Position numbers: made by a program. Positions 18,001-21,000 of a stretch of DNA of 23,911 nt are shown piece by piece. Numbering within the stretch: position 1 is the first letter of the stretch; each line of letters begins with the position of its first letter. Origin of the DNA: a virus (lineage: Duplodnaviria; Heunggongvirae; Uroviricota; Caudoviricetes); the IMG/VR virus record IMGVR_UViG_2671180841_000003. One strand, given 5' to 3'.

Positions 18001-21000
18001 GGGTGGTGGAGCAGATGTCGCAGCTGACAGCCATGACGGCCTCGTTTGTGCTGGCTACACCGACCGAGACGGATGGGGCGCTGTTTCCCGGTCGCATCAT
18101 GCTGGCGAACACCTGTATGTGGGATTACCGGGGAGATGAATGCGGGTATAACGGTCCTGCGGTGGCGGATGAGTTCGACAACCCCACCACGGATATCCGT
18201 AAGGACAGATGCAGCAAGTGCATGCGCGGGTGTGAACTGCGCAGGAATGTCGGCAATTTTGGCGGTTTCCTTTCCATTAATAAACTTTCGCAGTAAATCC
18301 CGGTTTATGACACAGACTGAATCAGCGATTCTGGCGCATGCCCGGCGGTGTGCGCCTGCGGAGTCGTGCGGCTTCGTGATAAGCACGTCGGAGGGGGAGT
18401 GGTATATCCCTTGTGTGAATATTTCTGCAGAGCCGGAGGCGTATTTTCGTATCGCACCGGAAGACTGGCTGCGGGCAGAGATGCAGGGGGAGATTGTGGC
18501 ACTGGTCCACAGTCATCCCGGTGGGCTGCCCTGGCTGAGCGAGGCTGACCGGCGGCTGCAGATAAAAAGCGCACTGCCCTGGTGGCTGGTCTGCCGGGGT
18601 GACATTCACAAATTCCGCTGTGTGCCACATCTGACAGGACGGCGCTTTGAGCACGGGGTGACGGACTGTTACACGCTGTTCCGGGATGCTTATCATCTGG
18701 CGGGGACTGAAATGCCGGATTTTCATCGCGAGGATGACTGGTGGCGCAACGGTCAGAACCTTTACCTGGACAATATGGCGGTCACCGGCTTTTACCGGGT
18801 GCCCCTGTCCTCTGCACAGGCGGGCGATATTCTGCTGTGCTGCTTTGGTGCTTCGGTACCGAACCATGCCGCCATTTACTGCGGCAACGGTGAGCTGCTT
18901 CACCATCTGCCTGAACAACTGAGTAAACGGGAGAGGTATTCCGAAAAATGGCAACGACGAACGCATTCTGTCTGGCGTCACCGCCACTGGCACGCATCTG
19001 CCTTCACGGGGATTTACAACGATTTGGCCGCCGCCTCAGCCTGTATGTGAACACGGCAGCGGAAGCCATCCGGGCGCTGTCGTTACAGGTGCCGGGCTTT
19101 CGCCGTCAGATGAACGAAGGCTGGTACCAGATACGTATTGCCGGTTATGACACGGCACCGGAGGCGGTGTACGCCCGTCTTCACGAACAGCTGGGTGAGG
19201 GAACGGTCATCCATATTGTGCCGCGACTGGCCGGGGCCGGAAAGGGTGGACTGCAGATTGTGCTGGGGGCGGCAGCCATCGTGGGCTCTTTCTTCACTGC
19301 CGGGGCATCAATGGCGTTATGGGGTTCAGCCCTGGCAGCCGGTGGTTTTTCTGCCACCACGATGCTGTTTTCACTTGGAGCCAGCATGATTCTGGGCGGT
19401 GTGGCCCAGATGCTGGCCCCGAAGGCAAAAACACCGGATTACCGCGCAACGGATAACGGCAGACAGAACACGTACTTTTCCTCGCTGGATAACATGATTG
19501 CCCAGGGGAACCCGATGCCGGTGCCTTACGGGGAAATGCTGGTTGGCTCCCGCCGTATATCCCAGGACATCAGCACCCGTGATGAAGGCGGGGGCGGAAC
19601 GGTCGTGGTTATCGGGCGACAGGGATAAAACATAAAAAAATCCCGCAGTGATCGCGGAGCTGCGGGGACAGACAAATGAAGATCAATGTTAAGGAGTTGT
19701 TTTTGTTACTCGGGCAAAAAAACACTAACGCAGCGAAATTATAAGCGCCACAGTCAGTGTGTGAAAATGTGAAGATATTCAGAATTTTTATGCCATTACC
19801 GGTTTTAACCAACAGGATTATCGGTGGGCATGAAAGAAAACCCCGGTATCTGCTGATACCGGGGTTTCTCTTTAGCATGGCAGAAATGTGTTTCATGCTT
19901 TTCGGGCGAAGGATATCCGACTTCTGTACGGAATGGCAAGTGGCGGTTAATTTATTCAGGGGAAGGCTGTATGGGAAAAGGTGGCGGTAAGGCACACACG
20001 CCTCGTGAGGCGAAGGATAATCTCAAATCCACGCAGATGATGAGCGTGATTGATGCGATTGGTGAGGGACCGATAGAAGGTCCGGTGAAGGGACTGCAGA
20101 GTATTCTGGTGAACAAAACCCCACTGACGGACACGGACGGCAATCCCGTGATACACGGTGTGACGGCGGTCTGGCGCGCCGGGGAGCAGGAGCAGACACC
20201 ACCGGAAGGCTTTGAGTCCTCCGGAGCTGAAACCGGACTGGGCGTGGAAGTGACGAAGGCAAAACCGGTGACGCGCACCATTACGTCCGCGAACATTGAC
20301 CGCCTGCGGGTTACCTTCGGGGTGCAGTCACTGGTGGAGACCACCTCAAAGGGTGACCGTAACCCGGCATCCGTCCGCCTGCTGATTCAGTTACAGCGTA
20401 ACGGTAACTGGGTGACAGAAAAGGACGTCACCATTAACGGCAAGACCACCTCACAGTTCCTGGCCTCGGTGATTCTGGATAATCTGCCTCCCCGGCCCTT
20501 TAACATCCGGATGGTCAGGGAGACGGCGGACAGCACCACGGACCAGCTGCAGAATAAGACGCTGTGGTCGTCATACACCGAAATCATCGATGTGAAACAG
20601 TGCTACCCGAACACGGCCATTGTGGGGCTGCAGGTGGATGCGGAGCAGTTCGGCGGCCAGCAGATGACGGTGAACTACCATATCCGCGGTCGCATCATCC
20701 AGGTGCCGTCAAACTATGACCCGGAAAAACGCACGTATAGTGGTATCTGGGACGGCAGTCTGAAACCGGCATACAGCAACAACCCGGCCTGGTGTCTGTG
20801 GGACATGCTGACTCACCCGCGCTACGGCATGGGAAAACGTCTGGGGGCGGCGGATGTGGACAAGTGGGCGCTGTATGCCATCGGGCAGTACTGCGACCAG
20901 ACGGTCCCGGATGGTTTCGGGGGGACCGAGCCGCGGATGACCTTTAATGCGTACCTGGCACAACAGCGTAAGGCGTGGGACGTTCTCAGTGATTTCTGCT

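Follow-up and report, generated by a model that had tools for sequence, protein, structure and literature searches.

Sequence evidence for an antisense PasB-2 small RNA gene between tail genes I and J of a Caudoviricetes genome

Introduction

The window analysed here is a stretch of 23,911 nucleotides from a virus of the Caudoviricetes (IMG/VR record IMGVR_UViG_2671180841_000003), in which tail genes I and J are separated by a gap of 342 bp (19629-19970). It is very probable that the I-proximal half of this gap is a self-contained antisense gene for the Hfq-dependent small RNA (sRNA) PasB, in its common PasB-2 allele, that this RNA likely represses in trans by occluding ribosome-binding sites (RBS), and that the J-proximal half is an ancestral junction. 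The locus is not new, PasB having been found by experiment in 2021 and relatives of it in 2014.

PasB (pathogenicity-associated sRNA B) was described in prophage PP6 of EPEC E2348/69, where it was detected by RNA-seq, Northern blot and Hfq RIL-seq (Pearl Mizrahi et al., 2021; PMC8550237). PasB-2 is a variant named by Zhu, Shabalina and Storz (2026). A preliminary description of the window, made from the raw sequence, had proposed a discrete Hfq-dependent sRNA in the gap. It had thereby picked out a genuine sRNA locus, which differs by one nucleotide from the EPEC PasB seen in those three assays.

The I-J gap and its coding content

Pfam searches of the flanking open reading frames place the stop codon of I (PF06805, Lambda_tail_I) at 19628 and the start of J, with seven GpJ domains, at 19971. 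These ORF ends and neighbours, together with the lack of a credible ORF between them, uphold the earlier view of the gap as a non-coding island of 342 bp. In phage lambda, by contrast, the I-J gap is just 60 bp and has no antisense gene.

The preliminary description had offered an ORF of 22 codons, placed here at 19676-19744, as an alternative product. A small protein from this ORF, or from the longer ORFs that span the gap, is extremely improbable. The ORFs are present, GGGGA precedes the ATG, and a ‘hypothetical protein’ is annotated here in some phage records, but the ATG is ACG or missing in 30 of 56 distinct relatives. Where it is kept, the products range from 17 to 38 amino acids and their frames differ after MKIN. 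None of the four ORFs in the gap has a PHROG match, and exactly opposite the short ORF, on the other strand, runs an RNA known from experiments. The alternative was therefore rejected.

The PasB gene, its promoter and its terminator

The I-proximal half of the gap is, by its sequence, the gene for PasB on the minus strand, in the PasB-2 allele. The features of this half are as follows.

19634..19731, minus strand: PasB sRNA gene, PasB-2 variant, from the alignment with E2348/69, the coordinates of Table S6 of the EPEC study and its probe, the fold, and the polymorphism at position 27.
19738..19765, minus strand: sigma-70 promoter of PasB, from promoter scans and the family alignment.
19634..19666, minus strand: intrinsic PasB terminator, flagged by a consensus scan and conserved in 26 family members.
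19696..19710, minus strand: (ARN)n tract AGUAACAAAAACAAC, PasB nucleotides 22-36, from a motif search in seven variants and the family alignment.
19666..19696, minus strand: single-stranded seed CUCCUUAACAUUGAUCUUCAUUUGUCUGUCC, PasB nucleotides 36-66, where seven RIL-seq targets pair best.
19765..19791, no strand assigned: upstream box AAATGTGAAGAnnTTCAGAAnTTTTAT, invariant in 17 relatives found by BLAST.

The published Northern probe for PasB, 23 nt long, matches the window at 23 of 23 positions (19639-19661), its one exact occurrence there against an expectation of 0. In E2348/69 PasB also lies antisense between homologues of I and J, as the annotation of that genome and the Pfam results in the window indicate, and its RNA is identical to that of the window at 82 of 83 nucleotides. 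Over gene, promoter and box together the two sequences differ by this one nucleotide and by another at an unconstrained position of the box; position, probe site, promoter and terminator are the same. The single change in the RNA, at 19690, is A in the window and C in the RNA of E2348/69. It is position 42 from the predicted start and 27 in the published numbering, falls in the proposed seed, and defines PasB-2.

The promoter has a -35 hexamer TTCACA (19765-19760), a spacer of 16 nt and a -10 hexamer TATAAT (19743-19738), with 11 of 12 matches. In a scan of 19000-20600 three promoter-like sites were found against 0.9 expected. The earlier reader had been unable to place a confident promoter; that part did not stand, since the scan found a strong sigma-70-like one on the minus strand at 19765..19738. 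In nearly all variants of the family alignment a -10-like hexamer lies at a fixed distance of 6 nt from a conserved 5′ GCGUUA.

Transcription is predicted to start at G19731 and to give a primary transcript of 98 nt that runs to the end of the U7 run at 19634. The published EPEC coordinates, which give PasB 83 nt (Table S6; PMC8550237), correspond to 19716..19634. The promoter-based start is thus 15 nt upstream of the published 5′ end, a coverage estimate, and the difference would reflect either processing or an error in one of the two estimates.

The terminator consists of CCCGCAG (19666-19660), a loop of 11 nt, CUGCGGG (19648-19642), an A and U7 (19640-19634). The minus-oriented terminator noted earlier at 19642-19666 was thereby confirmed, and the gene has both its own promoter and an intrinsic terminator with a U-tract of at least four residues, here seven. 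RNAalifold retained this terminator as the sole structure conserved across the 26 family members, and two of its pairs are kept through changes on both sides. A conserved 5′ hairpin was not retained in the same analysis of 26 variants, and a hairpin between U-run and A-run seen in folds of the single sequence was not significant (z = -1.1).

The earlier proposal of a transcript of about 170 nt between two hairpins, on either strand, was not sustained in that form: PasB is confined to the minus strand and spans about 19731 (or 19716, from the published coverage) to 19634, with the first of the two terminators included. Its promoter and the conserved upstream box occupy 19732-19797, outside the RNA.

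That box is identical in 17 of 17 relatives found by BLAST. It contains a CRP-like core, TGTGA-N6-TCAGA (19768-19783), centred at about -44.5 from the predicted start. This is the window's only core with at most one mismatch, where 0.66 sites are expected by chance window-wide. Compared with a class II CRP site (TGTGA-N6-TCACA near -41.5), it has one mismatch and lies off the canonical position. To judge from its sequence, the box is possibly read by cAMP-CRP. A separate observation is that the CRP-like box fits the higher level of PasB in the condition with 20-fold fewer Spot 42 chimeras.

Hfq binding, seed and targets

In EPEC, PasB has log2 fold changes of -6.8 and -2.4 upon deletion of hfq, with baseMean values in the Δhfq versus wild-type comparison of 482 in the activating and 1082 in the non-activating condition (PMC8550237). 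Expression and stabilisation by Hfq were shown for PasB of E2348/69 only, a genome other than that of the window. RIL-seq gave 37 partners, of which 30 are CDS or 5′UTR, and counted no sRNA partner; PasB was the 3′ RNA in 99-100% of the chimeras (PMC8550237). Among its contacts in EPEC are the virulence mRNAs map, ler, bfp and espC.

With respect to Hfq, the tract at 19696..19710 is a candidate distal-face site. It is an (ARN)5 in the window, and all seven variants checked have A-rich ARN runs in this position, with two repeats in the weakest and up to five in others. The U7 run of the terminator is likely the proximal-face site. An ARN tract upstream of the seed and a U-rich 3′ end form the layout of a class II Hfq sRNA.

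The seed appears to be PasB nucleotides 36-66. This region has a high computed probability of being unpaired, and it holds an anti-Shine-Dalgarno CUCCUU and a family-conserved (U/C)(U/C)(A/G)AUCUUC(A/G)U motif. Target pairing was scored in windows of 24 nt with shuffled controls, because unrestricted duplex folding over-extends the pairing. All seven RIL-seq targets tested paired best with nucleotides 36-66, and their summed pairing energy was -147 kcal/mol against -116 ± 5.5 kcal/mol for the controls. Three duplexes were individually significant (napF, z = -5.1; map, -3.9; caiF, -2.3); those of yijD and rplX were marginal, and those of hflX and E2348C_2648 did not surpass their shuffled controls. 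The seed position given by Zhu et al., ‘just upstream of the terminator’, overlaps in part with this assignment, and the original study reported no common target motif for PasB (PMC8550237).

On napF a near-perfect duplex of 16 nt (16 pairs, one of them G·U) covers the Shine-Dalgarno sequence and the GUG start, and on yijD the Shine-Dalgarno sequence is covered by a perfect match of 10 nt. The best-supported sites on napF, caiF and yijD lie over ribosome-binding sites or start codons, and translational repression by RBS occlusion is therefore likely. In map, hflX, ftsZ and rplX the pairing is inside the coding sequence. The base change of PasB-2 costs 2-6.4 kcal/mol at five of the seven target sites, and since it lies in the middle of the seed, the allele of the window probably has a shifted set of targets.

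In a lysogen, then, the tail genes would be silent and PasB would be made from its own sigma-70 promoter, with a transcript that would stop at its own intrinsic terminator beside the stop codon of I. The (ARN)n tract, a seed of about 30 unstructured nucleotides and the terminator hairpin with its U7 would allow Hfq binding and pairing in trans with mRNAs. Pairing over the RBS or start of a target would block its translation.

PasB may instead act mainly in cis, either through a duplex with the late tail mRNA that forms after induction, is cut by RNase III and changes the expression of J (or I), or through a flood of late mRNA that titrates PasB off its host targets. We regard this as improbable. 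Because its gene is antisense inside the operon, PasB can pair perfectly with the I-J spacer of the polycistronic late mRNA for the tail; its position antisense at the stop codon of I is kept in every relative examined; and the RNA diverges most in its seed core, which would be tolerated if it acted purely in cis. However, the tail genes are nearly silent in the lysogen (in one comparison sheet of the EPEC study baseMean is 4.8 for I and 15 for J; PMC8550237), while PasB is abundant and engages 37 partners in trans, almost all of them encoded in the core genome. Chimeras with I or J are absent from the RIL-seq listing, pairing on napF, map and caiF exceeds that expected by chance, and lambda does without the antisense gene.

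Distribution and relatives

The I-proximal 169 bp were found in 1611 of 5426 complete E. coli genomes, so that about 30% of them carry PasB. The family comprises at least 45 variants whose seed core varies; in a comparison of 26 variants that core was the most divergent part of the RNA. The upstream box, used as a search pattern, retrieved at least 120 viral contigs. In a set of 185,579 species representatives the same pattern matched E. albertii and three contaminant contigs only, and family members outside Escherichia were accordingly discounted.

In EHEC O157:H7 Sakai the sRNAs EcOnc22, EcOnc23 and EcOnc24, of prophages Sp15, Sp14 and Sp11 respectively, are about 85 nt long and are destabilised without Hfq (Tree et al., 2014). 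They share with PasB the I-J site, orientation, terminator stem, U-run, UUAAUCUUCAU motif, anti-Shine-Dalgarno CUCC, 5′ GCNUUA, upstream box and dependence on Hfq. They differ in the seed core and the A-rich tract and have a weaker -35, and identity over the I-proximal 166 bp of the gap is about 74%. The comparison with known EHEC prophage sRNAs suggested in the preliminary description thus yielded diverged relatives at the same site. EcOnc22-24 were placed at the PasB homologue in Sakai by probe position, not by their old coordinates. The latter miss the homologue in the present record; a shift of about 128 bp, which assumes a certain length for the older record, would be needed to bring them onto it. 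A link between these RNAs and PasB was not found in the published literature searched. Joining the EPEC ‘Pas’ and EHEC ‘EcOnc’ names allows the two data sets to be combined.

A further occupant of the site is the sodC moron of Sakai Sp10 (ECs_1989), with the same antisense orientation between I and J. There a body and terminator of the PasB family still adjoin the stop codon of I, but a protein-gene cargo, sodC, replaces the promoter and box of the sRNA; the window has no sodC.

Rfam gave no hits over the whole window at gathering thresholds, and in the gap, at E values up to 10, it gave terminator-like sub-threshold matches only, the best with 27 bits against a cutoff of 48. The covariance thresholds of the prophage sRNAs in Rfam (AgvB, AsxR, STnc100, Esr41, IsrG, IS009 and all others) were not reached. 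Rfam has no family for the PasB RNA and therefore affords it no covariance-model confirmation. AgvB and AsxR (RF02702, RF02703) resemble PasB in being short, Hfq-bound and prophage-encoded, with a variable 5′ region, an ARN motif and a terminator. They differ in lying at the PR′ moron site downstream of Q, whereas PasB lies in the tail operon and has mostly mRNAs as partners (30 of 37). Identity with AgvB or AsxR was rejected on the grounds of this different site and the lack of an Rfam match.

The two halves of the gap are separate mosaic modules that reassort. In elppa9 a different sRNA allele is joined to the same J-proximal module as in the window, and IS elements have inserted in both halves. 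Such features would suit an inert recombination or deletion scar with hairpins and without a product of its own, a reading to which we give almost no weight. Promoter, 5′ end, seed flanks, terminator and upstream box are kept across alleles that are otherwise about 25% different, and expression has been shown directly in EPEC and EHEC. The published Northern blots contradict an inert scar.

A broader reading, possible but on balance unlikely in its full extent, is that PasB, PasB-2, EcOnc22/23/24 and the rest of the at least 45 variants form one diversified sRNA family, in places with two members in tandem or with one fused behind sodC. Its Hfq-binding parts and box, perhaps under cAMP-CRP, would be fixed, and exchange or mutation of the seed core would direct the RNA to other host mRNAs. 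The PasB-2 change would then redirect the regulon, and action in cis upon induction may also occur. The leads on PasB from the present work are a seed at nucleotides 36-66 that is backed by the sites of RIL-seq partners and has the common PasB-2 polymorphism inside it, and an invariant CRP-like box upstream of the promoter.

The J-proximal half of the gap

The alignment with E2348/69 diverges after about 19797. The features beyond this point are as follows.

19792..19970, plus strand: module 2b, the J-proximal spacer, from the divergence of the E2348/69 alignment.
19837..19873, plus strand: hairpin H1, arms ACCCCGGUAUC and GAUACCGGGGU with A/U extensions and the tail UUUCUCUUU, from folds and comparison with lambda and E2348/69.
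19874..19904, plus strand: hairpin H2, AGCAUG, a loop of 14 nt, CAUGCU and then UUUUC, from the sequence and the variant L113.
19832..19939, minus strand: candidate second small transcript, from a promoter scan (9 of 12 matches), the fold and the tail UUUUCUUUC.

Module 2b stands in place of the shorter module 2a of E2348/69 and Sakai, and the gap is accordingly 342 bp against 240 bp in E2348/69. Within it lie the hairpins of the sense strand and the ribosome-binding site of J, AGGGGAAGG (19958-19966). The module is present in 1446 genomes and hardly varies among them, with an identity of 99% or more in 1442 of 1451 records.

H1 (19841-19873) folds with -32 kcal/mol over a stretch of 78 nt (z = -7.8; equalled in 0 of 200 shuffles). 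An A-tract upstream and a U-rich tract downstream flank it and give the tails UUUCUCUUU on the plus and UUUUCUUUC on the minus strand. The stem is very stable, yet it was not flagged by the consensus terminator scan, probably owing to base pairing between its A/U flanks; in E2348/69 the equivalent hairpin was picked out, on the sense strand. Lambda, E2348/69 and Sakai all have a terminator-like hairpin of the sense strand ahead of J, and H1 sits at the corresponding position. The lambda counterpart is a hairpin with a U-rich tract behind it, a short distance upstream of the ribosome-binding site of J, and in module 2a the stem covaries (C-G / U·G / U-A). The bidirectional terminator described earlier at 19841-19873 is thus real as a stable hairpin, but it is a separate sense-strand feature of the junction and not a boundary of the RNA. 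As a dispersed palindromic repeat H1 was rejected, since it was found in 1691 places against 1694 for the whole module, and so at this locus only.

Promoter scans of the window and of E2348/69 found no sense-strand promoter to account for a sense terminator. The J-proximal half would be the ancestral I-J junction with its terminator-like hairpin of the sense strand, and polymerase modified by Q would be expected to pass this hairpin in late transcription.

A second, minus-strand sRNA of about 70 nt in module 2b, from about 19903 to 19832 and ending in H1 and UUUUCUUUC, is also doubtful, and slightly more so than a cis role for PasB. A promoter-like site, TTGCCA-18-TATCCT (19939..19910, minus strand; 9 of 12 matches), lies upstream of H2 and H1, the two-hairpin fold has z = -7.8, and the extra 100 bp of module 2b relative to 2a are laid out like a small gene. 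However, the promoter is weak, H1 lies at the site of the ancestral sense-strand hairpin, a module at least 99% identical nearly everywhere offers no covariation to assess, and Rfam yields terminator-like sub-threshold matches alone. The RIL-seq data list no second RNA from the I-J gap of EPEC, a null result that says nothing on H1 of the window because EPEC has no module 2b.

H2 is a second, weaker sense-strand terminator-like element. In the variant L113, H1 is missing along with 47 nt, and there the 3′ arm of H2 forms with GCAUGAAA (19829-19836) a terminator-like hairpin of 8 bp.

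The I-J spacer

In this lambdoid prophage late region, K and L homologues lie further upstream, and neighbouring tail genes from H through I overlap or abut. The 342-bp gap of the preliminary description (19629-19970) was confirmed, and the ORFs on either side were identified as I and J homologues. In phage lambda, by comparison, the I-J gap is only 60 bp. The 342-bp gap recurs unchanged in PPompW-type prophages and in hundreds of E. coli chromosomes. The 22-codon ORF that had been offered as an alternative was rejected as coding, as were longer ORFs, for want of conservation and of any protein-family match; an inert scar is excluded by conservation and by published expression data. 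Promoters and terminators were located by consensus scan.

Features of the spacer and its flanks
18948-19628, ORF, lambda tail assembly protein I homologue
19666-19642, minus strand, terminator, CCCGCAG / CUGCGGG followed by A and U7 (scan)
19765-19760 (TTCACA), 16 nt, 19743-19738 (TATAAT), minus strand, promoter (scan, 11/12 matches)
19939..19910, minus strand, weak promoter-like site with hairpin H2 (19874..19904), then hairpin H1 (19837..19873), downstream
19971-23444, ORF, full tip-attachment protein J

Identity with PasB

Hfq RIL-seq in the EPEC strain E2348/69 revealed five prophage sRNAs (Pearl Mizrahi et al., 2021; PMC8550237). PasB was placed in prophage PP6 between E2348C_1436 and E2348C_1437, at NC_011601.1 1466343..1466261, minus strand, 83 nt, with AATCCCGCAGTGATCGCGGAGCT as Northern probe (PMC8550237, Table S6). 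Its two neighbours there are homologous to I and J, the probe sequence occurs once in the window (19639-19661, 0 expected by chance), and the published coordinates map to 19716..19634. The earlier proposal of a small RNA locus holds in substance: the gene is that of PasB, a prophage sRNA found by Hfq RIL-seq. Between the end of I and about 19795 the window and E2348/69 are identical save for two bases, 19690 and one in the upstream box at an unconstrained position. A change at position 27 defines PasB-2, and the commonest allele is a different one from that of E2348/69 (Zhu, Shabalina and Storz, bioRxiv 2026, 10.64898/2026.05.13.724894). In the published RNA numbering, position 27 corresponds to base 19690, so the window's copy is assigned by sequence to PasB-2. 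Rfam gave no match at gathering thresholds, and identity with AgvB or AsxR was rejected, both lying elsewhere in the prophage and giving no match.

The locus is already known, as PasB (2021), as the PasB-2 allele (2026) and through its relatives EcOnc22-24 (2014). The additions made here are modest and all are predictions: a seed, the SNP within it, a CRP-like box, unification of the family and an ancestral sense-strand hairpin.

The gene and its expression

The minus-oriented terminator noticed earlier was recovered by the scan, about 70 nt downstream of the promoter, its U7 run stopping 6 nt short of the stop codon of I. The predicted start, G19731, is 7 nt past the -10 hexamer and gives a 98-nt RNA; the published 5′ end, a read-coverage estimate, lies 15 nt inside it. 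On folding, the terminator alone was robust and the preceding 30 nt were predicted to be unpaired.

In EPEC, PasB gives a Hfq-dependent Northern band of the predicted size (PMC8550237). In the Δhfq versus wild-type analyses it fell by log2 6.8 under activating and 2.4 under non-activating conditions, with baseMeans of 482 and 1082, respectively (PMC8550237). In one sheet of these data baseMean was 4.8 for I and 15 for J, and PasB is therefore transcribed independently in the lysogen. In RIL-seq its chimeras numbered 258 under activating and 1820 under non-activating conditions, and its partners 37, of which 30 were CDS or 5′UTR; the partners include napF, map, hflX, fabR, ftsZ, caiF, tolC, rplX, ler, bfpB, bfpI, perB and espC (PMC8550237). 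PasB was the 3′ RNA in 99-100% of its published chimeras, the signature of an sRNA. PP6 holds another intergenic RNA whose RIL-seq profile is sRNA-like, E2348C_1409.E2348C_1408.IGR, with 10 partners, U7 and always the 3′ position in chimeras (PMC8550237, Table S5); it lies outside the region homologous to the gap.

A predicted seed

Seven RIL-seq partner sites were folded against PasB in 24-nt windows with shuffled-target controls. For all seven the best duplex fell in nt 36-66, counted from G19731, CUCCUUCACAUUGAUCUUCAUUUGUCUGUCC.

Duplexes at the seven sites (z versus shuffled target)
napF, -5.1, 16-nt near-perfect duplex across SD and GUG start
map, -3.9
caiF, -2.3, duplex spans AUG
yijD (listed as fabR site), -1.3, 10-nt perfect match across SD
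rplX, -1.1
hflX, about 0
E2348C_2648, about 0

The summed energy was -147 kcal/mol versus -116 ± 5.5 in shuffles, and was reached by 0 of 100. The folding supports a canonical mechanism in which PasB, assisted by Hfq, would block the ribosome-binding sites of target mRNAs. The PasB-2 change, C42A, is at the centre of the predicted seed and costs 2-6.4 kcal/mol of predicted stability at napF, yijD, caiF, map and rplX, so the window's PasB-2 may act on a gene set somewhat different from that of PasB.

The upstream box

Upstream of the promoter, the box AAATGTGAAGAnnTTCAGAAnTTTTAT (19765-19791) is invariant in 17 of 17 BLAST-found relatives. It contains TGTGA-N6-TCAGA, the sole CRP core with at most one mismatch in the 23.9-kb window (0.66 expected). 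Spot 42 is repressed by CRP and CyaR is activated by it. In the published RIL-seq data PasB was higher where Spot 42 chimeras were 20-fold fewer and CyaR chimeras more numerous, a pattern that fits activation by CRP. The centre of the putative site, about -44.5 from the predicted start versus the canonical -41.5, counts against CRP activation; an UP-like element and a recombination joint are alternative readings of the box.

Family and relatives

Of 5426 complete E. coli genomes, 1611 carry the I-proximal 169 bp; for 572 records, identity at the best match is only 80-90%, and Stx phage copies show 74-78% identity. Seventeen gaps were fetched and aligned, and the invariant box, run as a pattern over viral contigs, recovered at least 120 of them. 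The resulting collection comprised 129 loci, with 56 different promoter-plus-RNA sequences and 45 different RNAs. Near-universal among the variants are a -10-like hexamer 6 nt ahead of a conserved 5′ GCGUUA, a U-run, an A-rich ARN tract, an anti-Shine-Dalgarno motif of AAYUCCUU form, a UUAAUCUUCRU-type motif and the terminator CCCGCAG/CUGCGGG with its U-run. The RNA's 5′ third and the 5-8 nt separating the last two motifs before the terminator are class-specific. RNAalifold retained the terminator only, two pairs being kept through double changes.

Among the known EHEC prophage sRNAs, with which the preliminary description advised comparison, EcOnc22/23/24 correspond to three of the relatives, those in Sakai prophages Sp15, Sp14 and Sp11; they are RNAs of ~85 nt by Northern that are destabilised in Δhfq (Tree et al., 2014). 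The published EcOnc probe falls, on alignment, within the body of the PasB homologue, and its first 23 nt match exactly. This connection is absent from both Pas papers.

Searched for by its exact box, the family seems restricted to Escherichia. Short contigs in non-enterobacterial assemblies labelled Asaia platycodi, Parendozoicomonas haliclonae and Streptomyces flavalbus (comparison loci L137, L138 and L140) match E. coli prophage tail DNA at 98-99% identity (L140 versus window 18500-21913, 97.9%) and look like contamination. At the Sakai Sp10 I-J junction (L150 18485-19335) a sodC (Cu/Zn superoxide dismutase) moron lies antisense to I and J; it and its terminator take the place of the sRNA promoter and box, with a PasB-family body and terminator still beside the I stop. 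The Sp10 sRNA may arise from the sodC 3′ end, by processing or by read-through. Two tandem antisense sRNA genes, each with its own upstream box, occur between I and J in L018 9830-10160 (IMGVR_UViG_2531839666_000033) and L033; the J-proximal gene is highly diverged in body and terminator stem (CUCCCG...CGGGAG), with AACUCCUUAA kept. In viral contig L063 an insertion sequence lies within the PasB promoter, just past the box.

The J-proximal half

At 19798-19970 the spacer switches to module 2b, which shows 99% identity or more in almost all of its 1446 carrier genomes and recombines independently of the sRNA allele. Of the second terminator described at 19841-19873, the hairpin (H1) is real and, on folding, very stable, and is found at no other locus; it does not delimit the sRNA. 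At the equivalent place in lambda, within the I-J spacer (15445-15504; L141 1246-1305), a sense-strand hairpin and U-tract occur, AAACCGCC-TGCG-GGCGGTTT then TGTCATTT; this hairpin was not picked up by the consensus scan. E2348/69, Sakai and most relatives have, instead of H1, CAGGCAYCC-N4-GGRTGCCTG then TTGTTTTT before J; the scan flags the E2348/69-type hairpin on the sense strand, and its stem covaries (C-G, U.G, U-A). These hairpins and the covariation argue that the tail operon ancestrally had a sense-strand terminator-like hairpin ahead of J and that this hairpin is under selection; insertion of the sRNA gene would have taken place between the hairpin and the stop codon of I.

A candidate second RNA of ~70 nt, comprising H2 and H1, could be transcribed from the weak promoter-like site at 19939..19910. 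Viral contig L113 carries a module-2b variant without the 47 nt equivalent to window 19840-19886, H1 included, between two AGAAA repeats; the remainder, GCATGAAA-GAAATGTG-TTTCATGC then TTTT, is a simpler sense-strand terminator-like hairpin. In viral contig L044 an insertion sequence lies within module 2b.
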